Assembly: GCA_951812955.1 (NCBI GenBank)
Contig: OX638340.1
Coordinates: forward strand, 1,024,001-1,088,000
Direction: 5' to 3'
DNA length: 64,000 nt
Source of the DNA: an uncultured Gemmatimonadota bacterium
Lineage (GTDB): Bacteria; JAAXHH01
Made by a program: the position numbers and the translations under genes. The notes below the pieces were generated by a model that saw nothing but the letters and a program-made list of their open reading frames with translations, did not search any database and was not told where the DNA came from. This document shows positions 22,428 through 56,898 of this stretch, in pieces. Each line of letters opens with the position of its first letter. Position 1 is the stretch's first letter.

Positions 22428-22441
22428 CCGGCTGTTCGAAC

Positions 22442-22513
22442 GGAATCCCACCCATGACCGGATCCGCATGCATGACCGGAATCCCACCTATGACCGGATC
22501 CACACGCATGACC
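22442..22513 (+). repeat. 4 x 18-bp tandem repeat (GGAATCCCACCCATGACC / GGATCCGCATGCATGACC / GGAATCCCACCTATGACC / GGATCCACACGCATGACC) between enolase-family gene and Gfo/Idh/MocA gene
   Basis: read directly; CATGACC core recurs 5 times from the stop codon of the upstream gene. Confidence 0.85.
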
Positions 22514-22589
22514 GTTACGCGCGGCACGATACACAGTTACGAGCATAGCGCCAACCTAGAAGCAGTACCAAACTACAGAAAGGACAGCC

Positions 22590-27465: not shown

Positions 27466-28845
27466 ATGGTTAATGGAACCATACCAAAACGTATAGCCAT
27501 TATCGGCGGTGGGATATCCGGGCTGGGCGCAGCGTGGGCGTTGAATCAACATCCAGACCGGTTCGATTTCCGTATTTACGAAGCCCGGGAGCAGGTGGGC
27601 GGAAACGCAATCACCGCCGACATGCCGCAGGATGACGGCGGTTCCATTCCCTTCGACATTTCCGTCACCGCACTGATCCCATCGGTCTATCACCACATCC
27701 TGTTGTTGATGCGGAAGTTCGGCATCGAACTGCTCGATACCCGGTTCAACTACAGCGTGAAATACCATGGGCAGGTATACGCCCACGATTTCGACTCCGC
27801 CATCAGAAGGCAGCTGCAACCGGAGATTGTCCGGTTTCAACGGCTCCTGAAGCGTCTTCACCGGCTCGGCTGGCTGACCCATTCCCGGTCGAGGCTCGTC
27901 AACGCGCTCAATCCCTTAAATTACGTCAGCATGGGGACCGTGCTCAACCTGGGCGGTTTTTCAGGGGACTTCAGGTTCAAGATCCTGAAGCCCATGTTCG
28001 TCAATTTCCTGATGGCGACGAACGTGTTCGATATGCCCGCGTCGCTTTTTGCGCGGTACCTGGAGTTCTTCGATATCGAATCTGCGACGCCCATGCAGAC
28101 GTGGGACCAGGGCACGCGTCGTATCTACGAGCACCTTTCAGCCGGTTTCCGGGACAGGATATACCTCGGCCGGCCCGTACGAAAAGTGTACCGACGGCCG
28201 AACTGTGTCGTGATCGAGGATCCGGACGGAGTAGAGGAGACGTTCGACGAGGTGATCTTCGCCTGCAACGCGAACCAGACGCTGATGCTGCTCGACCGGC
28301 CCACGTTTCTGGAGCGGTACATTCTGTCGTCGATCCGTTATGAAAGCGAACTCCACAACCACACGGTCGTGCATTCGGACGCCTCCGTCCTGCCGGAGAA
28401 CGAAGTGAAACCGCTGGAGACGCGGAGCAATCATATTGAACAGTACGGGGCCAGGCCGGACAACTATGAAATAACCTACATCATGCACAACCAGCAGCCA
28501 TGGGCCAACCGGTCCGACAAACCCTGCCTGGTGACCTATAACCCGGTCACGCCCATCGACGAACGGAAGATCGTCAAGAAGTGGTGGTTCCAGCACATCG
28601 TGCATGATGTGCGCCATGTCGCCTGGCTCATCCATCTGTTCCGTTTCATCCAGGGCAGACGGCGGACCTGGCACTGCGGTGCCCATACCCTGATGAACAG
28701 CCAGGAAACCTGCTTTGTAACGGGACTCGCCGCGGCCTCGCAGATCGGCGCTGAATATCCCTTCAAAGACCCCCTGGCCAGGCGCATGTTCAATTATTAC
28801 GGAAGAATTCTGCACGGCTGGCGTTTCCGGAAGGCGAGAGGTTGA
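27466..28845 (+). CDS. NAD(P)/FAD-dependent oxidoreductase (amine-oxidase-like; resembles the FAD proteins encoded next to cyclopropane-fatty-acid synthase genes)
   Basis: 459 aa; dinucleotide-binding RIAIIGGGISGLGAAW...YEAREQVGGN. Confidence 0.65.
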   Translation: MVNGTIPKRIAIIGGGISGLGAAWALNQHPDRFDFRIYEAREQVGGNAITADMPQDDGGSIPFDISVTALIPSVYHHILLLMRKFGIELLDTRFNYSVKYHGQVYAHDFDSAIRRQLQPEIVRFQRLLKRLHRLGWLTHSRSRLVNALNPLNYVSMGTVLNLGGFSGDFRFKILKPMFVNFLMATNVFDMPASLFARYLEFFDIESATPMQTWDQGTRRIYEHLSAGFRDRIYLGRPVRKVYRRPNCVVIEDPDGVEETFDEVIFACNANQTLMLLDRPTFLERYILSSIRYESELHNHTVVHSDASVLPENEVKPLETRSNHIEQYGARPDNYEITYIMHNQQPWANRSDKPCLVTYNPVTPIDERKIVKKWWFQHIVHDVRHVAWLIHLFRFIQGRRRTWHCGAHTLMNSQETCFVTGLAAASQIGAEYPFKDPLARRMFNYYGRILHGWRFRKARG

Positions 28846-29090
28846 AAACCGCACCGGGTGACAGGGCTTCTACTGTCCAGTCAACATGCACCGAACGACG
28901 GAAATCCCGCGCGTATCTGCGCCGCCGCATTCCCCGCTACACCTGTTCGGGCCAAATCCTGCTTGTCGCGTTAATGCCTTGTAGTTATCATACTTACAGT
29001 GTGGAACACTATAGCGTTTCTTGACCCCTGCGGCCCTTCGATACCCGGACGAATTCACCGGCGCCGAGGAGGATCACGGAAGGACTGGAT

Positions 29091-30167
29091 TTGCATACCT
29101 CCGAAACGATCGCAACCCCCATGGCCGACGCAGATACCGTACACCGTACCGGGCACGCTCCGGGTGGCCTACCCCCCTTCCCGGAAGGCTGGTACCTGGT
29201 AACCACGCGCGAAACCCTGTTGCGGGAAAAACTGATCGAGAAGATGTGGATGGGGGAGAACATCGTCGCATGGTGTGACGAGGAAGGCCGTATCTGCGTG
29301 GCCGACGCGGTTTGTCCGCACCTGGGTTCCGACCTGGGACCGCAGGTCGGCGGCAAGATTCACGGTGGCCGCCTGGTCTGTCCGTTCCACGGGTTCGAGT
29401 TCGATGCGACGGGTCAATGCGTCGCGACGCCCAACGCCCCGGCGCCGAAAGCCGCGAAACTGACCGTGTATGAAACCCGTGAGATCTCCGGCCTGGTCTT
29501 CGCGTGGTACGGAATCGACGGCCGTCCCGCGCACTGGCACCTGCCGGACGATCCTCCGACCGGTAACGAGTGGGGCGAACTGGGATTCAGAACCCTGCGT
29601 TTTCGCAGCCATCCACAGGAAACGGCGGAGAACTCCGTGGATATCGGACACCTGCGCTACGTACACGGCTATGACAATGTGGACCCGGTCGGCCCGGTGA
29701 CGGTGGACGGAGCCTACCTGAGGAGCTGTTTCAACTTCAAGCGCGTCCGCAGCATTATGGGCTTGAAGGACCTCACCTATGAAGTATCGGCCGTCGCCCA
29801 TATCCACGGTCTGGGATACTCCTATGTCGAAGTCCACGAAAAAACGATCGATATGCACTTGAGACTGTGGGTACTGCCCACGCCGATCGATGGCAGCCTG
29901 ATCGATCTCGTACTGGCGGGCCAATTGCAGGGAATCCGCAGACCCCGGCGTTTCATCTCGGGCCTGGGGTTCCTCCCCATGGCGTTGCGCAACCGCTTGA
30001 TGAAGCAAATCATGCTTTCACAGCAAAAACGGGACGTACTGCAGGACGTGGTGATCTGGGAACGAAAGCAGTTTCGCACGCCGCCCCGGCTGTGCAAGGC
30101 CGATGGGCCCATTGGCCTTTACCGGCGCTATTGCCTGCAGTTCTATCCTGAACAACCGAAAGCCTGA
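29091..30167 (+). CDS. Rieske [2Fe-2S] non-heme-iron oxygenase (KshA/Neverland/PaO-like)
   Basis: Rieske CPHLGSDL...CPFHGFEF and mononuclear iron motif ENSVDIGHLRYVH (Ex3Dx2Hx4H); alternative start MADAD at 29121. Confidence 0.8.
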   Translation: MHTSETIATPMADADTVHRTGHAPGGLPPFPEGWYLVTTRETLLREKLIEKMWMGENIVAWCDEEGRICVADAVCPHLGSDLGPQVGGKIHGGRLVCPFHGFEFDATGQCVATPNAPAPKAAKLTVYETREISGLVFAWYGIDGRPAHWHLPDDPPTGNEWGELGFRTLRFRSHPQETAENSVDIGHLRYVHGYDNVDPVGPVTVDGAYLRSCFNFKRVRSIMGLKDLTYEVSAVAHIHGLGYSYVEVHEKTIDMHLRLWVLPTPIDGSLIDLVLAGQLQGIRRPRRFISGLGFLPMALRNRLMKQIMLSQQKRDVLQDVVIWERKQFRTPPRLCKADGPIGLYRRYCLQFYPEQPKA

Positions 30168-30255
30168 CCAATGCGACCCTTATCGGAGACAGGTAGAAGG
30201 TGGTCCGGTCCTGGAGGAGACCGCTCAAGCCTGCTGATATCTGCCGCTCTATAAG

Positions 30256-31050
30256 CTATCCGCCGTCCTCCAGCTCAGCCAGAGTCTCCAGCACCCCCTG
30301 CTGGATGAACTCCTCGTAGGCGTCCCGTGTCGGTAGTTCGGCCGCCTTCGACAGCATTTTCGTGGCCCGCGCCCGGCCGTCCTCGCGATCAAGATATGGA
30401 AGCCTGAGCGCATATTCAAACAGCACGACCTTCGAGTCCGGAGCTAGCTCCAGAGCCCGCTCGTAATGGATGACGGCGTTTTTCCGATTCCCCTTGTACA
30501 AGAACCGTGCAACGCGCCCGGCACGTGCGATGTCGGCGTGCCAGCCCCCTAAGGCCATATGCGCCTCTGCGAAGTCGGGGGAGATGGTGAGCGCGGTCTC
30601 GAGCAAATCGCGTGCCCTGCCCGCCAGACCTCGGCGAAATGCAGTTAGTTTACCGATACTCTGTGCATATCGGCCAACAGCGTGCGCGGATTGGAAATAT
30701 GCTTCGGAATTGGTCGAATCGATGCGCACTGCTTCTTCCCCGTACTCTATCGCGCGTTCCAAAATACCGTTCCGGTCCTCCTCAGTCGCCACATGGTGGC
30801 CGTACACCGCGAGCGATTGCGCCGCAAGGGCGTAGCCTTCGGATGTACCGACGGCTGACGCGAGATCCGCCGCCTCGAGAAAACGGCCTTCCTCGAAATC
30901 GGTCCTTGCTTCATCGATCGACTGCGCGTTCGCGCCAGCCGGGTCGGCCAGGCTGGCCGCAATAATCACGAATCCCGCAACTGCCACGAAACGGACAACT
31001 GCCGCGAATCCCGCAACGACTGCGAAACGGTAAAACTGGGTAAGGGTCAT
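30256..31050 (-). CDS. membrane-anchored tetratricopeptide-like repeat protein
   Basis: 264 aa; N-terminal hydrophobic segment then Ala-rich helical repeats. Confidence 0.5.
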   Translation of the reverse strand: MTLTQFYRFAVVAGFAAVVRFVAVAGFVIIAASLADPAGANAQSIDEARTDFEEGRFLEAADLASAVGTSEGYALAAQSLAVYGHHVATEEDRNGILERAIEYGEEAVRIDSTNSEAYFQSAHAVGRYAQSIGKLTAFRRGLAGRARDLLETALTISPDFAEAHMALGGWHADIARAGRVARFLYKGNRKNAVIHYERALELAPDSKVVLFEYALRLPYLDREDGRARATKMLSKAAELPTRDAYEEFIQQGVLETLAELEDGG

Positions 31051-31208
31051 CTGATATCCCCAGTTCTATTCAGCGGACGGGTACTCGCATCTCGGCTCGA
31101 CGCTTTAGTGTCTTTCAGCGATCAGTCATGCGAATCCACACCATATGGACAAACGCGGTGCTGCCCGACGGCATCGGCTATGGACCGATTCGACTAGGTC
31201 AACGGGGT

Positions 31209-32252
31209 CTAAAGAGGTTTACGAGCCAGGAAACAGTACAGCGGCGTGAAGATACCCGACCTGCCGCCCTCGACATAAGCGTCAGCAGTTCGATCCAGGA
31301 GTCGGACCACTTCCGAATACCCCTTCGGAATCAGACTTAGCGCTTCGGCCATCTTCGATCCTGCGATCACGGCCTTGCGACCCCAAGGGAGCCTGTTCAG
31401 TGCGTTCCCCAAAGTCCCATGCCGACTCTCCATTGGCCGATACCAAGGCGTGGAGGGTTCATTCCGGACGTCTCGGTCCATCCCTTCGATGACGTGGAAT
31501 CCCGCCGCTTCAAGCCCGTGATTCACTTCCCTGAACGTCGCAATGTCGTTCAGCGCAATGCCGCGCATGAGGTCCTGCTCAATGGCCCGGTGCCGGTTGT
31601 CTTTCGGATCGAATTTCTCGGTCAGACACATTTCCTGACCCCAAAACAGGGCTCCTGGTTTGAGTACGCGGAAGATCTCCGCGAAAGCGCGTTCCTTGTC
31701 TGGCGCGTGGCACGTTGACTCGATGGCATAGGCTCGGTCAAACGTCTCGTCCTCAATGCCGCCCATATCCATGAAGCTACACGTCTCGTAATCGACCATG
31801 TGGCCGAGTCCCGCTTCAGCGTTCAACCGCTTTGCCTTATCCAATTGGAGTTCGTTGATGTTGATTCCGACAACCCGGACGCCGGCCTCCCGGACGACGC
31901 GACGCATCGGACCGCCGATTCCACAACCAACGTCGGCCACCGTCATACCCTGCTCCAACTCCAGCTTCGAGATCATCAACCGCTGATGCCGGATTATGGA
32001 TTCCTCCAGGCTTTCATCGGGCTTTAGTGGCGCGAAGTGGAGGGATTCGCTCCAACCCCACACCATTAACCCGCTGCAAAGATCATAGTACTCTTTCACT
32101 GTTTCTGTGTGGTCGTACTCATACGCGCCATCGGCCCCCGGGACCGCCCGGGCTGCCCGGGCGGTCCAGCCTTCAAGGCGCTGCGCGCGACTCTTGACGT
32201 CCGATCCCCGGCTCGCATCTTTCAGTTCTCTGGATAGTTTGCCCATCGCCAT
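31209..32252 (-). CDS. sterol 24-C-methyltransferase-like (SMT/ERG6 family) SAM-dependent methyltransferase
   Basis: 347 aa; SMT signature blocks MVWGWSESLHF (cf. YEYGWGSSFHF), VADVGCGIGGP, YAIESTCHAP (cf. YAIEATCHAP), C-terminal FTPLYCFLARKP (cf. FTPMMLFVARKP). Confidence 0.8.
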   Translation of the reverse strand: MAMGKLSRELKDASRGSDVKSRAQRLEGWTARAARAVPGADGAYEYDHTETVKEYYDLCSGLMVWGWSESLHFAPLKPDESLEESIIRHQRLMISKLELEQGMTVADVGCGIGGPMRRVVREAGVRVVGININELQLDKAKRLNAEAGLGHMVDYETCSFMDMGGIEDETFDRAYAIESTCHAPDKERAFAEIFRVLKPGALFWGQEMCLTEKFDPKDNRHRAIEQDLMRGIALNDIATFREVNHGLEAAGFHVIEGMDRDVRNEPSTPWYRPMESRHGTLGNALNRLPWGRKAVIAGSKMAEALSLIPKGYSEVVRLLDRTADAYVEGGRSGIFTPLYCFLARKPL

Positions 32253-32288
32253 TTCGTGGTATTCCCCTGGTTTTTCGTCTACAAGGCT

Positions 32289-34319
32289 TCAGACTTGCAG
32301 TTCGTGTCTTTGCTCGGAGATGACGAACTGCAGCTTCTTGGTCGGTTTCATAGACGGAAACGGATTGAACCGCAGCTTATAGTTTGCAGGCGACACATCG
32401 ATCTTGAAGTAGTGCGCCAGCATCAGCACGTTGACAGCCAATTGCAGTTCCATCCAACGGGTGCCGAGACACATGTGCGTGCCCAGCCCGTACGGAGCGT
32501 ACCCGGGGCTGCGATGCTCATTGCGCGACGGCAAGTAGCGGTCGATGTCGAAGGAGTGCGGGTCGGGGAAGATGTCACTCATGTAATGCGAGGCGGTCGG
32601 CGCGATGTGGATCCGTTCCCTCATGGGCAGTTCGTATCCCTCAAACACACACGTATTCATCACGTGTCGAACAGACATGGGAACGATCGGGTACATGCGC
32701 ATACACTCCATGAGGAAGCGGTGCGTGACGTCAATCGCGGATGGAGTGAAGGCCTCGATGTCCGGAACGCCGTTCCCGAATACGTCATCGGCTTCATTTC
32801 GGATTTTCTCGTAGAGTGCAGGCTGCGACGCCATGGCATAGACTACCAGACTGAACGTGTCACCAAGGTACACGCTGGCGATCAACGCCGCAGAAAAGGC
32901 AAACCGCAGGTTGGCCTCCGGGAGGAATTGCGGGTCGCTCGCGTGCAGGCTAAGGTAATCGTCCACCAGGTCCCGCGGTTTTCCGGCCCGTTGGGCGGGG
33001 GTGTGGCCCTCCTCGACTCTTTTCATCAGTGTATCAAGGGATTTCGCCCGGCGTTTCATGCCCGGGGTGTTCAGCGTGAACTCGGGCAGCATCCTGGCGA
33101 TATGCACGCTGAGCGCCCGTTCCTTGTACTGCATCAGATCGTCCATCAGGTCCTGCGTGTCGATGCCGATAAACAGGGGCGAGAGTTGGGCGTTTATCAT
33201 CTGCCGGCACATGGACGTAGCAGAATAGGAATCGCCGACATTCAAGCTTGCCATGTATTTCCAGGCATGATGGTAGAGCTTGTCCAGCTGCCCCGCAAGT
33301 CTCCCGCGTGAATACGCTGGAGACAAAGACTTGCGCAGGCGGAAATGGTCGGCGCCGTCCAGGGAAGGCAAGAGGCCGGAAGCGCCGTAGACTTTCTCGA
33401 AGTCTCTGAAATAGTCCTTGGCACTCAGGTACATGCGCCCGTGCTTATGCACCCAGCGGTTTGCCTCGGGTCCGACCAGGAAGACCATGGGCCGGGTGAA
33501 AGGAGGGCGGATCTCAAACACCGGACCGTAGTCCTGCGCAAGGTCCGCAAAGAGCGCGTGGAGGTTGCCGTCTCGAACATGCGGTTGCATCATCAGCTTG
33601 CGTAACGGTACCCTCGGAATCTTCTTTGTAAAACCGGGACGTCGAAGCGTCGGGCCGGCGAGTTTGTGGGAGACTGCTTCGGCGATGGACCGGCCGATCA
33701 CGTCCATCTTGCAGATCAACTCGATGCGTTGCTCCGTCTCGTCATCGAGTTGGAACATGAATCGAAACACATCGCACGTATTGACGAGGCAAATTACGAT
33801 AACGTCTCTCGGGTCGGGGATCTCGTTCATGAAGATCGCCCGGCTGATCCGCGTTCTGATGAACTGACTTGCAGTACTCGAATCGACATCGTTGTTCAAT
33901 TCCATCTTCCAGTCAGTACGGGCCAGCGTCCAGAACTCGCCATCGTGGTGTTCCAGGATCTTCATTTCTACCAGGCGATCCAGAACCGAATCTATAATGG
34001 TCTCCGCTCGGGGGGCCAGCCGTTCGATCCAGTACTGTGTATTGTGCTGATTTGGCTCATTTACGATTTCTTCCAGAATGAAATCGATGGTGGAATTGCC
34101 CGTTGGTGTCTGGTCGAGGACGAACAGAGACCCCGGGTCCGTGTCGATGCGAGATCTGATTGAAAGCTCCGCAAGTGCGGCACCGATTACGGCGCAGTTC
34201 AAATCCCAGCCAGGCACCTGGTGGAAGTAGCCAGTCTCCTCATTGAGGAGCATCAGGATGAGTTCCTGGGTCAAAGTAAGTGATTGGGGCTTCACGTCCT
34301 TTGCAGTATCAGCCATTAG
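32289..34319 (-). CDS. cytochrome P450 with N-terminal GPP34/GOLPH3-like domain
   Basis: Start MADTAKD (4-bp overlap with RND stop); N-terminal ~230 aa LTLTQELILMLLNEETG... resembles GPP34; C-terminal P450 with EXXR (ECMRMYP) and heme loop YGLGTHMCLGTRW. Confidence 0.75.
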   Translation of the reverse strand, partial: LMADTAKDVKPQSLTLTQELILMLLNEETGYFHQVPGWDLNCAVIGAALAELSIRSRIDTDPGSLFVLDQTPTGNSTIDFILEEIVNEPNQHNTQYWIERLAPRAETIIDSVLDRLVEMKILEHHDGEFWTLARTDWKMELNNDVDSSTASQFIRTRISRAIFMNEIPDPRDVIVICLVNTCDVFRFMFQLDDETEQRIELICKMDVIGRSIAEAVSHKLAGPTLRRPGFTKKIPRVPLRKLMMQPHVRDGNLHALFADLAQDYGPVFEIRPPFTRPMVFLVGPEANRWVHKHGRMYLSAKDYFRDFEKVYGASGLLPSLDGADHFRLRKSLSPAYSRGRLAGQLDKLYHHAWKYMASLNVGDSYSATSMCRQMINAQLSPLFIGIDTQDLMDDLMQYKERALSVHIARMLPEFTLNTPGMKRRAKSLDTLMKRVEEGHTPAQRAGKPRDLVDDYLSLHASDPQFLPEANLRFAFSAALIASVYLGDTFSLVVYAMASQPALYEKIRNEADDVFGNGVPDIEAFTPSAIDVTHRFLMECMRMYPIVPMSVRHVMNTCVFEGYELPMRERIHIAPTASHYMSDIFPDPHSFDIDRYLPSRNEHRSPGYAPYGLGTHMCLGTRWMELQLAVNVLMLAHYFKIDVSPANYKLRFNPFPSMKPTKKLQFVISEQRHELQV

Positions 34320-37300
34320 TGGCCTCCCTTCATCAGACGCAGATGAATGGTAGAAAGAGCGGGAACGACCATCATGAGTATGGCCGTGACGACGAGGATA
34401 CCGCAACCAAGCGATGCGGCAAAGGGAACCAGGAACTGAGCATGAATAGCGCGTTCCAGAATCAAGGGGGTGAAGCCGAGAAACGTAGTCAGAGAAGTAA
34501 GCATAATCGGACGAAAACGTCCCTTTGCGCCCTCTATGATCGCAGTTCGCGCCGGAGCGCCTTCCCTGAGTTTCTGATCGATGAAAACGATCATGACCAG
34601 TGAATCGTTCACAACCACGCCGCTCAGGCCGAATATACCCATGAAGGAGATTGCGCTCAGGGCTACTCCAAGGGCCCAGTGACCAAGGATCACTCCGATG
34701 AACCCGAACGGGATCACCGCCATGATGATGAACGGTTTGGTATAGGATCGTAAGGGGATGGCGAGCAGCACGAAGATCATGATCAGAGCGATCGCAAATC
34801 CGCGATACAGTGCATCCAGGGAATCGAGTTGTTGTTGTTGCTCACCTCCGAACGTGTAGGTCAGGTCCGGGTACACGGCGGTCAATTCCGCGAGGATTGA
34901 ATCCGCCAGGATGCTATTGGCCTGGTCACCGGAGATCACCGCGGCATCCACGTCCGCAGTGACCGTGACGACACGCTGACCATCCTTCCGCCGAATGGCC
35001 GGCGGCGACACGCCCGTGTTCAGCGCGGCCACACTGACGATCGGGACCTCGGCACCGGCCGGCGTACGGATCAGGTACCTTTCGATATCGGTGATGGAAC
35101 TTCGTTCATCGGCGGGCAGGCGCACGTAGACCCGAACCTCTTCACGGCCGCGCTGCACCCGGACGGCATCCGCACCGAAAAACGCGGCGCGCGTCTGTCC
35201 GGCCAACGCTTCCAGCGTGAGACCCAAAGTCCGCGCTTCCGGCCGGAGTTCAAGCTGTATTTCCGGGATACCCGGGGTGTGATCCGAACGGACATCGTAG
35301 ACGCCTGTCACTCCACGGAGACCATCGACCACCGAGTCCGCAATCCGGGCGAGTCGCACCGGATCCGGATGCGACAGCACGGCCTCGACCGGGTTGCCCA
35401 GGTCGAAGACCTCTCCGCTGAAGGTGACACCGCGCACGTAGGGCAGCACACCCACTTCCTCTCGCCATGCCTGCACAACCTCTCCGGTAGTGATCTGCCT
35501 TTGCTCCGCGCTCAGGAGTTTGAACTCGATGGTTGCAATGTTGGCCTGAGGATTAAGGGTGGGGGCTGGATTAAGCCCACCCTCGAGCCTCGAGCCCTGT
35601 CCGACGGTCACCATTACGCCGGTCAGCAGTGGTGGCGCATCCTCGGGGCGGCCGCGCGAAAGCCGATCGACGACCCGGTAACCTGCGGCCTCCAGTTCCT
35701 GTGCCACCTCGTATGTCCTTGGAGCGGTCGTCCCGTCGGGCATCTCCAGGATGACCGTCGCAAAATCCCCCTCCACGTCAGCAGCCAACGTGGTAGGTAC
35801 GATCCCCGCCGGTACCAGCGAGATACTAAGTACGAGTATTCCAACGGCCCCCCCCAGCGTGACCGCGGGCTGATCCGTCGCGAACCGTAACGCTCGGTCC
35901 AGGGGACCCTGCACGAACCGGTTCAGCGACTCGTTCACACGTCCCTGGATCCGCGCGAAGAACCGGTCGAAAGCACTTGTCGGCGTCCATTCCGGACCGT
36001 GCAAACGGGACAGGTGGTTGGGTAGTACCAGCAGTGATTCGATCAGGGAAACAAACAGTATGGCGATAAGGATGATCGGCAGTGCCCGCCATACGTCACC
36101 GACGCCTCCGGGTATGAACAGCAGCGGGACGAAAGCCACCACCGAAGTAAGGACCGCGAAGGTCAACGGCACTTTTATCCGTCGTACTCCGCGTATCGCA
36201 GCCACGACACCGGGCGTTCCCCGACTGCGTTCATATTGAATGTGCTCGGCTACGACGATGGCGTCATCGACGACAATCCCTATGGCGAGGACGAAAGAGA
36301 ACAGGCTGATGGTGTTAATAGCTACGTCGAGTACCATCATGACGGCCAATGTGCCTATACCCGAAACGGCGAGGCCGACGGCGACCCACAATGCAAGCCG
36401 GATTTCCAGAAACAGGCTGAGTGCGATCAACACCAGCAACAGACCCAGGATGCCATTCTTGACGAGAATATCGGCACGTTCCTCATAGGCTTGGGATTCG
36501 TCATTCCACATGGTGATGTGCACACCGTTCGGCAGAGCCGGGATCACCTCGTTTGCCATATGTTCCCGGACAGTCGTGGCGACGTCCATCACTTGTTCGC
36601 CGTTGGCTCGGTACACCTCGACGAATACAGCGGGATGGTTCTGATGCCGAACAATCAGGTCGGATTCCTGAAAACCATCGCGAACCCTGGCGATATCGCC
36701 AAGGCGCAAGGCAGTGCCGTCACTTCTGCTAAGCAGGATGATCTCTTCGAAATCCTGCTGGTCGTAGTTCTGGCCGAGGGTACGAACCCGCACCTGGGAT
36801 TCCCGGGTATCGATACTGCCGGCAGAAAGGTTCAGGGAACTGCGACGAATGGTATTGGCGACATCGGCGAGTGTCAGTCCAAGGGCTCTCAGCCGATGAA
36901 GCGGCACCTCGATGGAGATCTCGTATTTCCGAACACCACTGACCTCGACCTGGGACACGGACGGAAGCGCCGTGAGTCCATCCTCGATCTGATATGCCGT
37001 TTCCTTCAGCGAGCGTTCGGACACGTCGCCGTAGACGATGAACCGTATCATGCTCATACGGTTGTCCATCTCACGGAAACTGGGACGATCGGCACCGGCC
37101 GGGAAAGACTGGATGCGATTGACCGCGGACTCGATATCGTTGAGCGCCTGGACCATGTCCGTACCGAAATCCATTTGAATCCGCACGGATGCTATACCCG
37201 GGGCCGCTACAGACTTGACCGCCTTCACGTCATCCAACCCGCTGACCTGGTCCTCGATCTTGACGACGATCGACTCCTCGACCTCCTCCGGCGTGGCGCC

Positions 37301-37489
37301 GGGATAGGCCATCGACACTTCGATATGGTAGAAGGGAGTAGTGGGCCACGCTTCCCGATCGATGCCGGACAGCGAAATCAGCCCTGCGGCGACGATGGCC
37401 ATCATCAACAGATTGGCGGCCACGCTGTTGCCCGTCATGTAAGCGATCGGACCGGAAGGTTCGTTATGATTTCCGTTGTCCATACTCAT
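34316..37489 (-). CDS. RND-family efflux transporter permease (AcrB/HpnN-like, HAE)
   Basis: 1057 aa; 12-TM RND topology with two large periplasmic loops; ATGA overlap with upstream MFP gene. Confidence 0.85.
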   Translation of the reverse strand: MSMDNGNHNEPSGPIAYMTGNSVAANLLMMAIVAAGLISLSGIDREAWPTTPFYHIEVSMAYPGATPEEVEESIVVKIEDQVSGLDDVKAVKSVAAPGIASVRIQMDFGTDMVQALNDIESAVNRIQSFPAGADRPSFREMDNRMSMIRFIVYGDVSERSLKETAYQIEDGLTALPSVSQVEVSGVRKYEISIEVPLHRLRALGLTLADVANTIRRSSLNLSAGSIDTRESQVRVRTLGQNYDQQDFEEIILLSRSDGTALRLGDIARVRDGFQESDLIVRHQNHPAVFVEVYRANGEQVMDVATTVREHMANEVIPALPNGVHITMWNDESQAYEERADILVKNGILGLLLVLIALSLFLEIRLALWVAVGLAVSGIGTLAVMMVLDVAINTISLFSFVLAIGIVVDDAIVVAEHIQYERSRGTPGVVAAIRGVRRIKVPLTFAVLTSVVAFVPLLFIPGGVGDVWRALPIILIAILFVSLIESLLVLPNHLSRLHGPEWTPTSAFDRFFARIQGRVNESLNRFVQGPLDRALRFATDQPAVTLGGAVGILVLSISLVPAGIVPTTLAADVEGDFATVILEMPDGTTAPRTYEVAQELEAAGYRVVDRLSRGRPEDAPPLLTGVMVTVGQGSRLEGGLNPAPTLNPQANIATIEFKLLSAEQRQITTGEVVQAWREEVGVLPYVRGVTFSGEVFDLGNPVEAVLSHPDPVRLARIADSVVDGLRGVTGVYDVRSDHTPGIPEIQLELRPEARTLGLTLEALAGQTRAAFFGADAVRVQRGREEVRVYVRLPADERSSITDIERYLIRTPAGAEVPIVSVAALNTGVSPPAIRRKDGQRVVTVTADVDAAVISGDQANSILADSILAELTAVYPDLTYTFGGEQQQQLDSLDALYRGFAIALIMIFVLLAIPLRSYTKPFIIMAVIPFGFIGVILGHWALGVALSAISFMGIFGLSGVVVNDSLVMIVFIDQKLREGAPARTAIIEGAKGRFRPIMLTSLTTFLGFTPLILERAIHAQFLVPFAASLGCGILVVTAILMMVVPALSTIHLRLMKGGH

Positions 37490-38703
37490 GGGGTCTGGCC
37501 GACTTCCGTCTGGACGCGCATGCCTTCGGTGGTGAACCGGATCCCGCCGGTGACAACGGCCTGACCGCTTTCGAGGTCACCCGTCACATAGGCTACGTCG
37601 CCGGTTCGTTGCAGTACCTGTACCGGAACGATATGCACCACGCCGCCGTCCCGCACGATCCAGACCTCGTTGCCGGACTGCAGCGCCGCTCGCGGAACCA
37701 GGAAGTAATCATCCCGTTCAAGGCCGTCTATTTTCACTTCGACGTATTTGCCTACCAGCAGGGGAGGACTACTGCCGCCGATAGGAATCGTGCCGTCCGT
37801 GGGGCGTCCCGCTCGAAACGGATCCGGTACGCGCACAATGATGTCGATGGTACGCGTTTGCCGGTCAAGGGACGTCTCGCCGCGGTCCACATAACCTCTC
37901 CAGGCATAGGATCCTTCACCGAATCGGGCGACGACCTGCGCAGCGACTCTCCGGTTCCCGTCACCCGCCGAAAGCGACCACAACCCCGGAATCAGCGCTG
38001 CATCGGAATCGGACAGAGGCACCACGATTTCCACCGCATCTGAGGCGAAAACCCTCGCGACGGATTGACCGGCGGCGACGATCCGCCCCACGTCCACGGT
38101 TTCTTCCTGCACGTATCCGTCGAATGGCGCCGTAACTTCGGTTCTCCCCAGGGCGAGATTGGCGTCGGCAAGCCTGGCTTCGTCGCGATCCAGTGCGGCC
38201 TGGGCCGCTTTCAGTTGCGGTTCTCTAAGGGCAAGCGGGTTCGCGCCGTTTGGCGATGATACGTCCTCCTGACGGGAGGAATAAAGCGCGTGCTGCGCGC
38301 GGGCAATCGAAGCCCGTTCCTGCTCTTTGAGGAACGCCACCCGGCTGGCGGCGACGTTGGCCTCCGCTTCACGCACCCGGTGCCGGTAATCGATGTCTTC
38401 CAGCCGGAATAGCGTTTGGCCTGCGGTTATCCGTCCACCGCTCTGGAATCCCTGTTCAACCCAGACGACTTTGCCGCCGACCTGAGGAACGATATCTACT
38501 TCCGCGTCTGGCCGGACGGTACCGGATCCAAATACCGGTACGGGGCCAGACCCGGTGGCGACCGGGCCGGTCTGCACGAACGGAGTCTGGGGAGGCTGTT
38601 CCGTACGTGTCGGTTCGGGGGCCAGTGAAATCAACAGGGCGGCCAATGCCACGGAGACTCCGAGAACGCCTACTGTGACTAGAAGACTGGTAAGACGGGA
38701 CAT
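37486..38703 (-). CDS. RND efflux periplasmic adaptor (membrane fusion protein)
   Basis: 405 aa; N-terminal TM anchor, coiled-coil/lipoyl/beta-barrel MFP pattern. Confidence 0.8.
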   Translation of the reverse strand: MSRLTSLLVTVGVLGVSVALAALLISLAPEPTRTEQPPQTPFVQTGPVATGSGPVPVFGSGTVRPDAEVDIVPQVGGKVVWVEQGFQSGGRITAGQTLFRLEDIDYRHRVREAEANVAASRVAFLKEQERASIARAQHALYSSRQEDVSSPNGANPLALREPQLKAAQAALDRDEARLADANLALGRTEVTAPFDGYVQEETVDVGRIVAAGQSVARVFASDAVEIVVPLSDSDAALIPGLWSLSAGDGNRRVAAQVVARFGEGSYAWRGYVDRGETSLDRQTRTIDIIVRVPDPFRAGRPTDGTIPIGGSSPPLLVGKYVEVKIDGLERDDYFLVPRAALQSGNEVWIVRDGGVVHIVPVQVLQRTGDVAYVTGDLESGQAVVTGGIRFTTEGMRVQTEVGQTP

Positions 38704-38709
38704 GCGAAT

Positions 38710-40230
38710 TCACTCCGTTGGAAGGCGAGAGGAAGAGCGCCGACCTTGCTGATGCTGAAGGAGGCCCTCCCGGTCGGCTGCGGTCCAGGTACCGCCCAGC
38801 GCGCGATGGAGTGCCAGACGTGCGTAGCCCAGATCGCGCAATGCTGCCGAGTGTATCGATTGCGTGGCCAACCGGGACTGTTCAGCTGCCAGGAACGCTT
38901 CGTATTCCCCCACACCATACAGGTATTTTCGCTCCAGTAACGCGGATTGAGCCCGAGTTTCTTCGGTGAGGGAAACCAGCAGCGCGTGGCGCCTGCGGCT
39001 GGCTTCCAATGCCGTCAGGGCAATTTCAACCTCGTTAACCGCGGTTACCACGGCACGGCCGTATGCGGCCGCGGCCTCGTTCAACCTGGCCTCTGCCAGC
39101 GCGATGTTGCTTCGAATCCGGGAGCCCTGGAAAACGGGACCGAGCAGATTCGCAGTGAGGTTTCGGAACCATTGATCCGGATCGAACCATTCGCTTGAAT
39201 CCGTGCTCTGAAGTCCGATCGCGCCCTGCAGAGACAGCCTCGGAAGCAGGTCCGCCCGTCGCGCGCCCACCGAGAACCGTGCCGCCTCCACGCGCTGCAT
39301 GGCCGCAAGGACGTCGGGACGTTGGACCATGAGATCGGCAGGAATGCCGGCGGGAACGGGATCGAGTACGGGAGATGGAGCGGGCGCATCGGAGAGCAAG
39401 TGCGCCAGGTCGGCCCGGAAGCCACCCATGAGTATCCACAGCCGACCCTCGGCGTCCGCCCGCAGGGCTTCGATCCGCGGCAATTCCGCCTGGGCCTCAC
39501 GCAGACTTCGACGGGCGGCGTGCAGGCCGACCAGGTCGGCTAACCCGCTTTCATACCGGGACCCGGCCAGTGATTCCTGTTGTTCCAGGATCGCCACGAT
39601 TTCAAAGGCGAACCGCTGCTGCTGGCGCAGATTCACGATTTCCAGGTAGGTCCGTACGGTCTCCGCCAGCACGCCCAGGTTTGCACTCAGATAGTCCGCC
39701 TCCGTAGCCACCAACTCGGCAGCCGCGGCGCGCGTGTCGTTGCGGTTGCGGCCCCAGAAATCCAGCTCGTAGGCGAATTCAACGCTCAGGGCATAGGTCG
39801 TCAGTCCGAGCCTGTCCGGGATATCCACTCCGGCCGCGCCGAGTACGTCAGGATCCAGACCGACCTCTTCCAGTTGCGCTCCTATGCCGGCATTCGTCGG
39901 ACCGTCGGATTCGCTCACGTTCACCGTCGGCCGCAGCAACGGAAACACCGCCGACCCGGCTATGCCTTTCCGCATCCTGGCCTGATGAACTCTGGCGACC
40001 GCTCCGGCCAGGTCGAAATTAGAAGAAAGCACTTCTTCGATTACCCGGTCGAGGACCGGATCTTCGAATGACTTCCACCACTCCAGGGGTCGGTATACGC
40101 CGGAATCCTCGCTGGCAGTAAATGCGCCGGGTGTTTCCGGCACCGATTCGAGCACCGGTAGATTCCGGTTCGGAGCAAGGGAACATGCCGAGAGGAAAAG
40201 GAAAGCAAACAACGGTATTAATCGTCCCAT
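38710..40230 (-). CDS. outer-membrane efflux protein (TolC/NodT-family lipoprotein)
   Basis: 506 aa; lipobox LFLSACS; duplicated OEP repeats. Confidence 0.8.
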   Translation of the reverse strand: MGRLIPLFAFLFLSACSLAPNRNLPVLESVPETPGAFTASEDSGVYRPLEWWKSFEDPVLDRVIEEVLSSNFDLAGAVARVHQARMRKGIAGSAVFPLLRPTVNVSESDGPTNAGIGAQLEEVGLDPDVLGAAGVDIPDRLGLTTYALSVEFAYELDFWGRNRNDTRAAAAELVATEADYLSANLGVLAETVRTYLEIVNLRQQQRFAFEIVAILEQQESLAGSRYESGLADLVGLHAARRSLREAQAELPRIEALRADAEGRLWILMGGFRADLAHLLSDAPAPSPVLDPVPAGIPADLMVQRPDVLAAMQRVEAARFSVGARRADLLPRLSLQGAIGLQSTDSSEWFDPDQWFRNLTANLLGPVFQGSRIRSNIALAEARLNEAAAAYGRAVVTAVNEVEIALTALEASRRRHALLVSLTEETRAQSALLERKYLYGVGEYEAFLAAEQSRLATQSIHSAALRDLGYARLALHRALGGTWTAADREGLLQHQQGRRSSSRLPTE

Positions 40231-40457
40231 GATACAACTCCAGGATCGGTGCCGTATTCACCTGCCCCGTCCCTTTGAATCCCATCATCCGGTGGAGAAC
40301 GGGTCTCGTGGAAATCAGGGAACGTATGTCAGATTCCTATATATTACATTATGTTACATTCTTAAAAGGGTCAAGTTTCAAATGGCGTACACCAGGGGCT
40401 TGTATTACCGCCAGCGCCGTCGGAGAAACGGGTCTGAATGACAAGGACAGACGGGTA

Positions 40458-40486
40458 TTGACAAATGCATGCGCAACCGCTAACAT
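40458..40486 (+). promoter_or_regulatory. sigma70-like promoter TTGACA-N17-TAACAT for ECF ATPase operon
   Basis: TTGACA 40458-40463, 17-nt spacer, TAACAT 40481-40486; overlaps annotated ATG 40465. Confidence 0.4.
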
Positions 40487-43121: not shown

Positions 43122-44240
43122 ATGGACAGACGATACAGGGCAGGGGTTATCGGGCGCACCGGCAAGGGTAATTACGGCCATGGCCTGGATACGGTCTACC
43201 TCGGCATGGAACACGTAGACATCATCGCCGTGGCCGACGACGATCCGGATGGCCTGCGGGACGCGGGCCGTCGGCTGGGCGTGCAGAACCTGTACACCGA
43301 CTACAGGGAGATGCTGCGAAACGAGTGGTTCGACATCGTCAGCATCTGTCCCCGATGGCTCGACCAACACGCCGCAATGACCCTGGCCGTCGCGGAAGCG
43401 GGCGCGAGCATCTTCCTCGAAAAGCCCATCGCCCGAACGCTGTCCGAAGCTGACGCCATGATAGAAGCCTGCGAGAAGGCGGGTGTGGTGATGGGCATCG
43501 CCCACCAGGGCCGCATGCACGCGGCCGCGTGGCGTGCCCGGCAATTACTCGCCGAAGGCGCAATCGGAGACATTCTCCACGTACGGATGAATGGCAAGGA
43601 GGACCATCGCGGTGGCGGGGAGGACCTCATGGTGCTGGGTACCCACCTTTTCGACATGCTCCGGTTTCTCCTGGGCAGAAACCCCGCCTGGGTGCAGGCG
43701 GCGGTAACCGTGGACGGCGGCCGTTCCGCGACCCTGGAGGACGCCGGGGAGGGTCCGGAAGAACTGGGACTGATCGCGGGAGACGCCATCCACGCGATGT
43801 ACGGTTTCGGGCACGGTGTGACGGCCACTTTCGAAACGCGCCGCAACCAATCGAGCCATCCTCAACGGTACGGCATGTGGGTTTTCGGGTCGGAGGGCAT
43901 CATGACCGTCCACGAGTCCTCCCAGCAGATCCGGATTTATGAATCCCCGGTCTGGCATCCGGATGAAGGCGCGGCCATTCGCGACGTCACCGCGGAAACT
44001 CTCGAACTCGCGCCTTCTGCGCAGCCCTCCATGGGCGCGCTCCAGGCGGCGGCCAATGTCGCCATCGTCCGCGACGTGTTCGAGGCGGTACGGGATGGAC
44101 GCAGGCCGGTAAACAGCGGTTATGACGGGCGCTGGGCACTGGAAATGATACACGGCGTCTACGCCGCCCACCTGACGGGAAGCCGAATCGCCCTGCCGCT
44201 GGAAAACCGGGACCACCCGCTGTTGCCGAACCTCATCTAG
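43122..44240 (+). CDS. Gfo/Idh/MocA family oxidoreductase
   Basis: 372 aa; Rossmann YRAGVIGRTGKGNYG, EKP. Confidence 0.8.
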   Translation: MDRRYRAGVIGRTGKGNYGHGLDTVYLGMEHVDIIAVADDDPDGLRDAGRRLGVQNLYTDYREMLRNEWFDIVSICPRWLDQHAAMTLAVAEAGASIFLEKPIARTLSEADAMIEACEKAGVVMGIAHQGRMHAAAWRARQLLAEGAIGDILHVRMNGKEDHRGGGEDLMVLGTHLFDMLRFLLGRNPAWVQAAVTVDGGRSATLEDAGEGPEELGLIAGDAIHAMYGFGHGVTATFETRRNQSSHPQRYGMWVFGSEGIMTVHESSQQIRIYESPVWHPDEGAAIRDVTAETLELAPSAQPSMGALQAAANVAIVRDVFEAVRDGRRPVNSGYDGRWALEMIHGVYAAHLTGSRIALPLENRDHPLLPNLI

Positions 44241-44264
44241 GCAGGCCTCCGTGCAGGATTCACC

Positions 44265-45461
44265 ATGAAGATCACCCGTATCCGAATCACGCCGGTCAAG
44301 ACACCCGGTCCGGAATCACGCCCTTTCGTCATCCATTCCATCAATCCGATCTACCATTACCCCGACCTCAAATACGACGCACCGCCGGAAACCAGGCCGA
44401 AGCAGCCAGACGGCCCCGGATCGCTCGTCATCGAAATCGAAACGGACGAGGGCGTGACCGGCGTCTCGCAGAAGGGCTATGGCCTGCCCGGCGTATATTC
44501 CGTCCTGGAAAATGTCCTCGCTCCCCTGCTGATCGGAGAGGACCCCATGCGCACGGACTGGCTGTGGGAAAAAATGCACCGGTACTGCATATCCCAGGCG
44601 CGGGAAGGGATTACCAGCAGCGCCATCAGCGCCGTCGATACAGCCCTTTGGGACCTGAAGGGGCGGTATCTGAACCAGCCGGTATACAACCTGCTCGGAG
44701 GGAAGACGAAAGACCGCCTGCGCGCTTACGCGAGCCGGCTGTACGTATACGCCAGCGACCGGGGCGACCCGGACCTGGGACTCCTGAGGGAAGAGGCGTC
44801 GATGTACGTTGAACAGGGCTTTACGGCCGTGAAACAACGGTTCGGATTCAATCAGGACGACGGCGTGGAAGGCATGCGCAAGAACCGGCGCGTAGTCGAG
44901 GCACTTCGCGAAACAATCGGGGCGGACGTCGAACAGATGGTGGACTGCTGCCGTTCCTTCACTGCCGATTACGCGATCAGGATGATCCGCATGGTAGAGG
45001 AATTCGACCTCGCCTGGGTGGAAGAACCGGTCCATCCCCACGACTGGCCCGGTTACGTGAAGGTACGGCAGGCCGTGTCCATGCCGATATCGGGAGGAGA
45101 AAACGAGTTCGGCAAGCACGCCTTCGCACGGTGGCTCGAGATGGGTTGCGCCGACATCTGGCAGCCCGACACGGACCGTTGCGCGGGCATAACGGAGGTA
45201 CAGAAAATAGTCCATCTTGCCGCGGCGAACGATATCCCGGTCATCGCGCACGGCGGGTGGATGGCCAACTTCCACCTCGCCATGGCCAACATGAACATGC
45301 CCATGATCGAGTATTTCCCGGACCACAACCTGGATCCGGAAACGCAGATTCTCACCGGACAACCCCGTCCCGAGGACGGATACATCACGCTATCCGATGC
45401 GCCGGGCCTGGGATTGGAACTGAACAGGGACGCGCTGAATCGATTTACCTGGAACGGGTGA
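44265..45461 (+). CDS. enolase-superfamily sugar-acid dehydratase (mandelate racemase subgroup, L-rhamnonate dehydratase-like)
   Basis: 398 aa; MKITRIRITPV, metal ligand blocks (VDCCRSF, VEEPVHP, ISGGENE). Confidence 0.8.
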   Translation: MKITRIRITPVKTPGPESRPFVIHSINPIYHYPDLKYDAPPETRPKQPDGPGSLVIEIETDEGVTGVSQKGYGLPGVYSVLENVLAPLLIGEDPMRTDWLWEKMHRYCISQAREGITSSAISAVDTALWDLKGRYLNQPVYNLLGGKTKDRLRAYASRLYVYASDRGDPDLGLLREEASMYVEQGFTAVKQRFGFNQDDGVEGMRKNRRVVEALRETIGADVEQMVDCCRSFTADYAIRMIRMVEEFDLAWVEEPVHPHDWPGYVKVRQAVSMPISGGENEFGKHAFARWLEMGCADIWQPDTDRCAGITEVQKIVHLAAANDIPVIAHGGWMANFHLAMANMNMPMIEYFPDHNLDPETQILTGQPRPEDGYITLSDAPGLGLELNRDALNRFTWNG

Positions 45462-54103: not shown

Positions 54104-54167
54104 ATAGTTTTACGATAGTACTCAAACCCCAAAATGCAGTTGGCTTCCATATAGCACCGCATTCTAA

Positions 54168-56870: not shown

Positions 56871-56898
56871 TTCATTCAGTTTCAGATACCTTTGATTC

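Follow-up and report, generated by a model that had tools for sequence, protein, structure and literature searches.

The stretch of DNA analysed here (the window; 64,000 nucleotides, positions 1,024,001 to 1,088,000 of contig OX638340.1, assembly GCA_951812955.1) comes from an uncultured Gemmatimonadota bacterium and carries a minus-strand group of genes in which a tripartite transporter, made up of an outer-membrane factor (OMF), a membrane fusion protein (MFP) and a resistance-nodulation-division (RND) permease, precedes a fusion of a GPP34 domain with a cytochrome P450 (P450) and a sterol C-methyltransferase (SMT). Judged by gene content, motifs, synteny, fold similarity and distribution, this locus is probably one copy of a horizontally mobile cassette of sponge and coral symbionts for the tailoring and export of a sterol or a very sterol-like triterpenoid. 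The genes concerned, which include those for a tetratricopeptide-repeat (TPR) protein, a Rieske oxygenase and a flavin adenine dinucleotide (FAD) enzyme, and the region upstream of them are as follows (window positions):

38710..40230, minus strand: OMF, NodT/TolC-like lipoprotein, 506 aa; first gene of the unit, OEP domains, NodT subfamily
37486..38703, minus strand: MFP, periplasmic adaptor, 405 aa; RND_mfp
34316..37489, minus strand: RND permease, AcrB/ACR_tran family, 1057 aa; PF00873, divergent cassette-specific subfamily
32289..34316, minus strand: GPP34::cytochrome P450 fusion ("GPP34_L"), 675 aa; PF05719 and PF00067
31209..32252, minus strand: SMT, ERG6-family sterol C-methyltransferase homologue, 347 aa; Sterol_MT_C, non-canonical Region I
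30256..31050, minus strand: secreted TPR-like protein, 264 aa; BstC/TatT-type lipid-carrier fold
29091..30167, plus strand: KshA-like Rieske non-heme iron oxygenase, 358 aa from TTG; convergent with the pump operon
27466..28845, plus strand: FAD-dependent amine-oxidase-fold oxidoreductase, 459 aa; PF01593
40231..40464, no strand assigned: divergent intergenic region 5' of the OMF gene, 234 bp; AT-rich promoter-like block, putative function

The list of open reading frames (ORFs) and scans with Pfam and NCBIfam bear out the five co-directional minus-strand genes, in the order OMF-MFP-RND-GPP34::P450-SMT, that an initial annotation of this DNA had described. The coordinates likewise agree with the 4-bp ATGA overlap that it gave for the MFP and RND genes and with its 36-bp gap between the P450 and SMT genes; the OMF and MFP genes are 6 bp apart. 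Its description of the RND/P450 junction as a second ATGA was wrong: the junction (...GGGAGGCCACTAATGGCT; GGGAGGCCACTAATGG) is a 1-bp TAATG overlap, in which the RND stop codon TAA occupies 34318-34316 and the P450 ATG 34316-34314, with a strong ribosome-binding site, GGGAGG, 6 nt 5' of the ATG. The protein read from this ATG has 675 aa and so agrees in size with most of the more than 120 full-length homologues found at 70% identity or above (672-697 aa); a start at TTG 34406, which would give the longest ORF, was dropped in favour of ATG 34316, which fits the lengths of the homologues. The TPR gene follows the SMT gene on the same strand after a 158-bp gap, and the plus-strand FAD and Rieske genes are convergent toward it. 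The interval 40231-40464 had been put forward as a shared divergent promoter region; a divergent intergenic region of 234 bp is indeed present, adjoining a gene for an energy-coupling-factor (ECF)-type ATP-binding cassette (ABC) ATPase, but neither promoter nor terminator consensus scans returned anything above shuffled background. An AT-rich block at about 40340-40400, with TTGACC-17 nt-TAATGT, holds the same position in close relatives (alignment with eight of them) and could be a promoter or an operator. This element reads AATGTAACATAATGTAATATATAGG and includes a short direct repeat, AATGTAA, present twice; five relatives that are more distant have a similar block, TATTCACAGTATAGTAAGTATAC, at the equivalent position. 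The 64-kb window gave no match in Rfam and tRNA scans.

A genome scan located the fusion P450 at 77 loci in eight phyla, at 55-94% identity. The host lineages are Gemmatimonadota (including Ca. Palauibacter), Latescibacterota, Opitutae, Rhodothermales, Chloroflexota/Dehalococcoidia, Acidimicrobiales (including Ca. Aldehydirespirator), Nitrospirota, and Alpha- and Gammaproteobacteria (Arenicellales, Ca. Poriferihabitaceae). Many of the metagenome-assembled genomes (MAGs) name no host in their titles; all isolate prefixes that can be traced belong to sponge bins (APA, SB06xx, RHO, IRC, COS) or to a coral bin (Plut). A scan of JGI metagenomes yielded five loci only. Two MKWU01 contigs presumably derive from an Aplysina metagenome, and one metagenome locus is a 98%-identical fragment from Petrosia ficiformis. 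Three of the five (Ga0209021, LXNI01 and LXNJ01) come from sponges, A. aerophoba, S. foetidus and P. ficiformis, that feature in an earlier study of sterol gene clusters (PMC10070321).

Gene neighbourhoods were compared at the 60 loci with at least 8 kb on each side of the P450, by tblastn with the window proteins and by clustering of the ORFs in the flanks. An RND-superfamily transporter occurs in 57 of these loci (within 300 bp of the P450 in 39), a Rieske gene in 50, an SMT gene in 38 (median gap to the P450, 49 bp), an FAD gene in 25 (74-96% identical), an OMF gene in 17 and a TPR gene in 10. The set OMF-MFP-RND-P450-SMT recurs as a unit in Gemmatimonadota and Latescibacterota, and the suggestion of the initial annotation that the neighbouring Rieske, FAD and TPR genes belong with it is upheld by their recurrence and by the Opitutae TPR gene, which lies directly 3' of the RND gene. 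Since the same gene set recurs across phyla, the grouping is far beyond chance. The closest complete relative, L008 (93% identical), has the order OMF-MFP-RND-P450-SMT-TPR. The Opitutae MAG carries P450-FAD on one strand and OMF-MFP-RND-TPR and the Rieske gene on the other; its genes are 64-84% identical to those of the window, an SMT gene is absent and the flanks are unrelated. This rearranged set in unrelated surroundings means that the cassette is horizontally mobile. The FAD gene is directly 3' of the P450 in Opitutae and in two of the three Nitrospirota genome loci. The invariant core of the cassette is the fusion P450 plus a lipid-type exporter.

Some features of these neighbourhoods stand apart from the core. 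ECF-type ABC/CbiQ and hydantoinase genes were considered as members of the cassette and set aside as flanking, being syntenic only in the closest relatives (8-9 loci). At 13171-16760 of L008/L001, a Transglut_core2 gene and two unannotated ORFs replace the Rieske and FAD genes between syntenic hydantoinase and ECF ABC flanks, which indicates recent gain or loss of these two enzymes. At each of the loci L043, L046, L058 and L063 a pair of GPP34::P450 paralogues lies inside 20 kb, and in L043 and L046 both members of the pair have an MMPL gene close by; these two-copy loci fit the multi-copy, non-recent paralogy reported for GPP34 proteins (PMC11706023).

The type of transporter follows lineage and cell envelope. 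Loci of Gemmatimonadota, Latescibacterota, Opitutae and Rhodothermales have an ACR_tran RND permease with an adaptor, usually accompanied by an OMF; across these four lineages the RND protein is 82-95% identical, which exceeds the identity of the cassette enzymes, and its gene is directly upstream of the P450 except in Opitutae and Rhodothermales. Chloroflexota and Actinomycetota loci have instead an 828-aa MMPL/HAE3 protein with matches to the Sterol-sensing and Patched sterol-sensing-domain (SSD) models of Pfam; these monoderm variants score below the cut-offs of the HAE3 (205 vs. 352), HpnN (98 vs. 752) and BstA (45 vs. 1400) models. Most Pseudomonadota loci (Alphaproteobacteria, an unclassified gammaproteobacterium and Poriferihabitaceae) carry a second MMPL type, which usually adjoins an unannotated protein with a sub-threshold DUF1302 match. 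That different lipid exporters have been recruited independently speaks for a product that is a lipid and has to be moved out of the inner membrane. Six Dehalococcoidia loci (L024, L026-L029 and L040) also contain a major facilitator superfamily (MFS) transporter and an LppX_LprAFG lipoprotein about 4-9 kb 3' of the P450, alongside MMPL and Rieske genes and, in five of the six, an SMT gene; the two are reminiscent of LprG and Rv1410, which work together in lipid export in mycobacteria.

The last gene of the five had been called a sterol methyltransferase, and the call holds. Its product matches Sterol_MT_C (PF08498) at 56.7 bits, above the Pfam cut-off of 21.7, over residues 289-346, and is 35% identical to yeast ERG6 over 306 residues (E=2e-64). 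Region II, which holds the S-adenosylmethionine-binding motif (VADVGCGIGGP; reference LDVGCGVGGP), and Region III (YAIESTCHAP; reference YAIEATCHAP) are intact and conserved across 46 orthologues, and the C-terminal signature IFTPLYCFLARKP is conserved and aligns with LFTPMMLFVARKP of ERG6. Region I, for which the reference is F-Y-E-(Y/F)-G-W-G, departs from it throughout the clade of 46 sequences ("MV-type"), where it reads (F/L)-M-(V/L)-(W/F/Y)-G-W-(G/N/S). Conserved Regions II and III combined with an altered Region I point to an enzyme that is probably active, with a changed substrate or regiochemistry. The SMTs of sterol gene clusters from sponge symbionts and environmental samples span the same range of identity to ERG6, their "second copies" lying at 34.5-35.6% (PMC10070321, Brown et al., 2023); gene identifiers and ERG6 identities together suggest that these second copies belong to the clade of the window SMT. 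Second-copy SMTs at about 35% identity were among the enzymes assayed there. Set against the SMTs of that study, the cassette clade has FMV(W/F/Y)GW where canonical enzymes have FYE(Y/F)GWG. One SMT of the window clade, P0180 (477 aa), bears an extra KshA_C domain in precomputed Pfam annotation and may be a Rosetta-stone fusion of an SMT with a Rieske C-terminal domain, or an artefact of gene calling.

In the Nitrospira MAG GCA_009840285.1 (locus L084), the fusion P450 is followed by an SMT of the MV-type clade, a Rieske/KshA_C gene, an outer membrane protein (OMP) gene and a canonical SMT, and then by a 1156-aa fusion of squalene epoxidase (SE) with oxidosqualene cyclase (OSC), a CYP51-like P450 and ERG4_ERG24. 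L045 and L048 (Nitrospirota) and L065 (Arenicellales) likewise have an SE-OSC fusion no more than 10 kb from the fusion P450; a CYP51-like P450 is present in three of the four OSC-bearing loci and ERG4_ERG24 in L084. The link to sterols drawn in the initial annotation is strengthened by these neighbours and by the BstC-like fold of the TPR protein (see below). Two SMT paralogues in one sterol locus are seen at 9538-13951 of L084 and also in L047. The OSC-proximal SMT of L084 has Region I FYEFGWGQSFHF (FYEFGWG) and is 42% identical to the window SMT, whereas the P450-proximal one has FMVYGWGESLHF (FMVYGWG) and is 76% identical to it, a pairing that suggests two different methylation steps.

Within the window, ACR_tran, MFP and OMF proteins stand together with family-level matches, as in tripartite RND systems. 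The OMF matches OEP (PF02321) in two stretches (3.3e-37) and TIGR01845 outer_NodT at 241 bits (cut-off 210) and has an N-terminal lipobox, LSAC; the MFP matches TIGR01730 RND_mfp at 166 bits (cut-off 95) and has an N-terminal membrane anchor. The permease matches ACR_tran (PF00873) at 533 bits and carries the acidic pair of transmembrane helix 4 (TM4) in a DDAIV motif that is kept in 30 of 30 orthologues. Its best matches in the PDB are OqxB (4e-72), then MdtB, MexB and AcrB. The initial annotation had likened it to HpnN and BstA, which does not hold: it scores 21.5 bits against the HpnN cut-off of 1100, gives no match to BstA and is an ACR_tran protein. Among curated models and solved structures it comes closest to multidrug pumps of the HAE-1 family, yet RND_permease_2, the better of the two HAE-1 NCBIfam models (RND_permease_1 and RND_permease_2), gives only 412 bits and the other 345, against a cut-off of 1250. 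The grouping with ordinary HAE-1 pumps that, according to the initial annotation, would refute its reading is thus seen in part. By these scores and its distribution the permease appears to be a divergent AcrB-like subfamily that travels with the cassette. A simple pattern search, short of a rigorous alignment, did not find the canonical AcrB Lys-Asn motif of TM10 (around residue 955) in the window protein or the 30 orthologues; the TM10 segment of the window protein reads GLSGVVVNDSLVMIVF, the TM4 DD pair and the RFRPIMLT Arg motif are present, and the proton relay may differ from that of AcrB.

The TPR protein has an all-helical fold of the BstC/TatT type. Foldseek aligns it with BstC at TM-scores of 0.63/0.71; the sequence identity to BstC is 15%. 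In structure, the protein of defined function that comes nearest to it binds sterol. By sequence it belongs neither to TatT (PF16811) nor to the BstC family, having only generic TPR matches in Pfam, and its relatives carry RMD1-3 (PF21033). The protein may therefore work like BstC, by structural likeness, while not being a member of its family.

The kinship of the permease with HAE-1 pumps raises the possibility that the locus is a detoxification module, in which a multidrug-type RND pump together with P450, Rieske and FAD enzymes would neutralise and expel toxic metabolites of the host or of neighbours, such as the brominated alkaloids or terpenoids that abound in sponges. P450 and efflux genes are often paired in detoxification, and confinement to chemically rich sponge and coral holobionts would fit. 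Such a module has no place, however, for an SMT with a Sterol_MT_C domain, which in most loci is separated from the P450 by 21-73 bp; the place of drug pumps is taken in monoderm lineages by MMPL/HAE3 proteins that match sterol-sensing-domain models; OSC genes adjoin the cassette in four loci, some with CYP51-like and ERG24 genes; the periplasmic carrier is BstC-like; and the score of the permease is one third of the multidrug-family cut-off. We consider detoxification quite unlikely.

The Rieske protein has Rieske (8e-16) and KshA_C (2.8e-22) domains, its translation may in fact begin with the ATG of codon 10, and its ligands for the [2Fe-2S] cluster (C75-x-H77...C97-x-x-H100) and for the mononuclear iron (D184/H187/H192) are at least 95% conserved among 43 orthologues. 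It was rejected as an SdmA: NF052579 gives 31.8 bits against a cut-off of 600, over the Rieske domain only. The FAD enzyme (PF01593, 1.4e-14) finds LkcE (6e-26) and the P. acnes "putative aminooxidase" 2b9w (2e-10) as its best PDB matches, the latter of which we take to be the polyenoic fatty-acid isomerase of P. acnes; these likenesses are compatible with a redox or isomerase step at a double bond.

The best solved match of the Rieske protein is KshA (1.2e-22), and sponge-specific KshA clusters have been proposed to serve steroid degradation (Holert et al., 2018, PMC5790920). The divergent, apparently horizontally transferred KshA of that study forms a sponge-only cluster in the metagenomes of A. 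aerophoba, P. ficiformis and S. foetidus, and the cassette Rieske may be its KshA cluster IV. On this basis a KshA-like Rieske and a CYP125-like P450 might start the breakdown of host sterols for carbon. We regard this as highly improbable: the families of conserved neighbours that were inspected include no HsaC, KstD or β-oxidation family found repeatedly in different lineages, and the single acyl-CoA-dehydrogenase-like family occurs in six Acidimicrobiales-type loci only. What does recur are SMT, transporter, FAD and TPR genes, methyltransferase and exporter being anabolic and export functions, and biosynthetic genes (OSC, in some cases CYP51-like and ERG24) stand beside the cassette in four loci.

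The same logic of tailoring and export might instead be applied to a non-sterol isoprenoid, such as squalene, a botryococcene-like triterpene, a hopanoid or a carotenoid. All through its clade the SMT has a changed Region I, the part that binds the sterol; SMT-like enzymes of Botryococcus methylate squalene and botryococcene; in most host lineages no OSC is seen close to the cassette; and the fold family of the FAD enzyme, which has weak matches to HpnE and CrtD, includes carotenoid and squalene desaturases. The only cyclase linked to the cassette is nevertheless the SE-fused OSC, accompanied by a CYP51-like gene in three of the four loci and, in L084, by ERG24; MMPL variants match sterol-sensing-domain models, the carrier most resembles a sterol binder among proteins of defined function, and no carotenoid or hopanoid genes recur in the flanks. 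A non-sterol isoprenoid thus seems rather unlikely.

The fusion protein itself combines an N-terminal GPP34 domain (PF05719, 1.9e-28) with a C-terminal P450 (PF00067, 6.4e-37). At about 675 aa it fits the architecture of GPP34_L, a monophyletic group of 656 proteins reported to be exclusive to sponge symbionts and expressed in Aplysina metatranscriptomes (PMC11706023, Microbiome 2025), and it is a member of that group by architecture, length, phyla and its 55-94% identity to proteins of sponge MAGs. The best 120 homologue clusters are full-length and 70-93% identical, the few that are named being MAGs of Gemmatimonadota, Opitutae and Nitrospira. The P450 motifs are intact (heme Cys loop YGLGTHMCLG, ExxR, I-helix GDT), and the nearest solved relatives of the domain are terpenoid and sterol oxidases: taxadiene 5α-hydroxylase, CYP51 and CYP120, at about 1e-15 to 1e-16. 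Assignment to CYP51 was rejected, the match at about 1e-15 being no better than those to taxadiene hydroxylase or CYP120 and the identity to the CYP51-like protein of L084 being 25% over 152 aa.

The GPP34 domain has 73% mean column identity across phyla in an alignment of 22 sequences. A phmmer search of the PDB with the domain alone gave no match; a profile of the 22 sequences reaches GOLPH3 at 9e-6 and Vps74 at 7e-4. The residues reported to form the GOLPH3 pocket for phosphatidylinositol 4-phosphate (PI4P) are W81, R90, R171 and R174 (human numbering; Wood 2009, Dippold 2009). In a weak profile alignment to 9qpq/3kn1 (E ~1e-5) only one of these four is kept, W81 corresponding to the invariant W37; R90 aligns with V/I44, and the fusion lacks the segment that holds R171 and R174. 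The alignment of 22 sequences shows six more invariant arginines, which may leave room for the binding of an anionic lipid.

These features have to be set against the proposal that GPP34 proteins, including the GPP34+P450 architecture, are secreted effectors that bind PI4P of the host and counter phagocytosis by blocking phagosome maturation, which would let symbionts survive inside sponge cells (PMC11706023), in which case the neighbours of the fusion gene would be incidental. Exclusivity to sponge symbionts, expression in Aplysina, true homology to GPP34/GOLPH3, the invariant W37 and arginines that could bind an anionic head group all agree with an effector. A signal peptide was looked for in the fusion protein and none was found, and this, with the poor retention of the PI4P-pocket residues (three of the four are not kept), argues against secretion as an effector. 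The gene is moreover translationally coupled to that of an inner-membrane RND permease, and RND pumps export small molecules, not folded proteins; the P450 needs heme, ferredoxin and NAD(P)H, which a secreted protein would be unlikely to find. A lipid transporter accompanies the fusion in 57 of the 60 loci, as does at least one of SMT, Rieske and FAD genes (57 of 60), and the text of PMC11706023 mentions neither sterol, methyltransferase, RND nor efflux. On this evidence an effector role is improbable. GPP34 is found fused to a Rieske protein in two symbiont genomes and, also rarely, to ABC proteins (PMC11706023). These fusions, the lack of a signal peptide and the overlap of the P450 start with the stop codon of the permease lead us to prefer GPP34 as a module attached to enzymes and transporters of membrane lipids, which would serve docking at the bacterial membrane or lipid presentation.

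Tailoring and export of a sterol is favoured over the rival explanations because an ERG6-family SMT, lipid exporters matched to lineage, adjacency to OSC genes and a BstC-like carrier come together in one cassette. Its substrate, products and direction of transport, as proposed here from sequence, would be as follows. A sterol with an unsaturated side chain in the inner membrane, made by the bacterium where an OSC cluster adjoins the cassette and probably derived from the host where no OSC is nearby, as in the window, would receive a side-chain methyl group from the cytoplasmic ERG6-family SMT, whose altered Region I suggests a substrate or regiochemistry other than that of a 24-SMT. The P450 would oxidise the lipid while GPP34 docks to the membrane surface or to the lipid, much like the membrane anchor of eukaryotic sterol P450s. 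The Rieske enzyme could add a further hydroxylation or desaturation and the FAD enzyme a redox or isomerisation step at a double bond, both of them optional, and the AcrB-like RND permease with its adaptor and channel, aided by the BstC-like periplasmic carrier, would move the product to the outer membrane or outside.

Several observations weigh against this sterol reading. The 64-kb window (about 45 ORFs scanned) holds no OSC, squalene synthase, squalene epoxidase, CYP51 or ERG24, and was rejected as a cluster for de novo sterol biosynthesis; nor does any of these genes lie within 10 kb in the loci of Gemmatimonadota, Latescibacterota, Chloroflexota and Actinomycetota. Region I of the window SMT is LMVWGWSESLHF (L-M-V-W-G-W-S) in place of the canonical FYEYGWGSSFHF and lacks the Y-E pair. 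Four of 24 metagenomic SMT homologues were inactive on desmosterol and 24-methylenecholesterol (PMC10070321). The characterised pumps closest to the window permease are multidrug pumps. The cluster encodes no redox partner for the P450 or the Rieske enzyme, and L008, the closest relative with a complete chromosome, has neither a Rieske nor an FAD gene within 10 kb of the P450, so that those two genes are accessory. An AF2 model of the whole fusion protein (pLDDT 60.7, pTM 0.46; input of 44 sequences in a shallow alignment at 70-93% identity) was too poor for a test of a membrane-binding surface on the protein, its P450 half being poor.

A more far-reaching version, which we consider doubtful, has the symbionts take host sterols or their own, alkylate the side chain in a non-canonical way with the MV-type SMT, oxidise the product and return it by export to the holobiont. 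Such an alkylation might affect C-26/C-27 or might be an extra methylation beyond those of canonical 24-SMTs.

The cassette can be placed beside several known systems. Closest in logic is sdmAB-bstABC of Methylococcus capsulatus (PMC10942540), from which it differs in the families of its transporter and enzymes: BstA is MMPL/HpnN-like, whereas the cassette has an AcrB-like permease, a classical adaptor and a TolC-like channel, lacks SdmA, SdmB and BstB, and adds the fusion P450, SMT and FAD enzyme. With HpnN it shares the concept of a triterpenoid biosynthetic locus that has an RND-superfamily exporter of its own to supply the outer membrane; weak HpnN/HAE3 matches are seen for the MMPL variants of the cassette, and HpnN uses no adaptor or outer-membrane channel, whereas the window permease does. 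AcrAB-TolC, MexAB-OprM, OqxAB and MdtABC have the same three-component architecture, Pfam family and TM4 Asp-Asp pair, but the cassette pump, unlike these HAE-1 systems, is translationally coupled to a lipid-modifying enzyme and moves with it between phyla. The Rieske protein has the domains of KshA (Rieske and KshA_C) and intact metal ligands; its alignment in the PDB spans residues 14-192 only, and neither a KshB reductase nor catabolic genes lie near it.

L084 is of the same type as the clusters of PMC10070321 (SE-OSC, CYP51-like, ERG24 and two SMTs), which encode de novo pathways, whereas the cassette has no OSC, CYP51, ERG24 or SdmB of its own and mostly occurs without them; the text of that study names no P450, Rieske gene or transporter. 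The account of GPP34_L in PMC11706023 includes no linkage to SMT, Rieske, FAD or RND/MMPL genes or to OSC clusters. In the literature searched, no description was found of the cluster linkage, of the coupling to RND or MMPL transporters, of the MV-type SMT clade or of the BstC-like carrier. The families of the parts are known, two of them already published as features of sponge symbionts.

Other features of the window lie apart from the cassette. Two pairs of genes for an MR_MLE enolase-superfamily protein and a GFO_IDH_MocA oxidoreductase (21279-23648 and 43122-45461) flank the eight cassette genes (27466-40230) at about 4 kb and 3 kb. Four co-directional plus-strand ORFs at 51147-57900 (702, 283, 900 and 333 aa) have no Pfam match at E<=1e-5, and the GC content falls to 0.45 at 54-56 kb, from about 0.60 elsewhere in the window; the 702-aa ORF alone has weak matches to PADLOC DNA-methyltransferase models (MTase_II 2.5e-8, mad2 9e-5), and the region may be a restriction-modification or defence island that was gained by horizontal transfer. 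Three PhyH (phytanoyl-CoA dioxygenase family) genes are found at 3570-4436, 4450-5283 and 62370-63218.

The locus brings together, as neighbours in one mobile cassette, two published hallmarks of sponge symbionts, the GPP34+P450 fusion and bacterial SMTs, and gives GPP34_L a concrete, testable biochemical role; the same enzyme set recruits different classes of transporter according to lineage and envelope type. If the proposed function is right, the window pump would be the first AcrB-type tripartite pump dedicated to sterol export. The distribution of the cassette suggests that sterol remodelling is common in sponge symbionts of at least eight phyla, most of them without an adjacent cyclase. 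Bacterial SMTs are at the heart of the dispute about 24-isopropyl and 26-methyl steranes as possible traces of early animals. Were sterols indeed returned to the holobiont, GPP34 would be a docking module for the bacterial inner membrane or for sterols and not a host effector, and part of the unusual sterols of sponges would be bacterial, including precursors of the disputed 26-methyl and 24-isopropyl steranes. If such alkylated sterols reach the host, the interpretation of sponge sterol biomarkers and of sterol exchange between animals and microbes would change.

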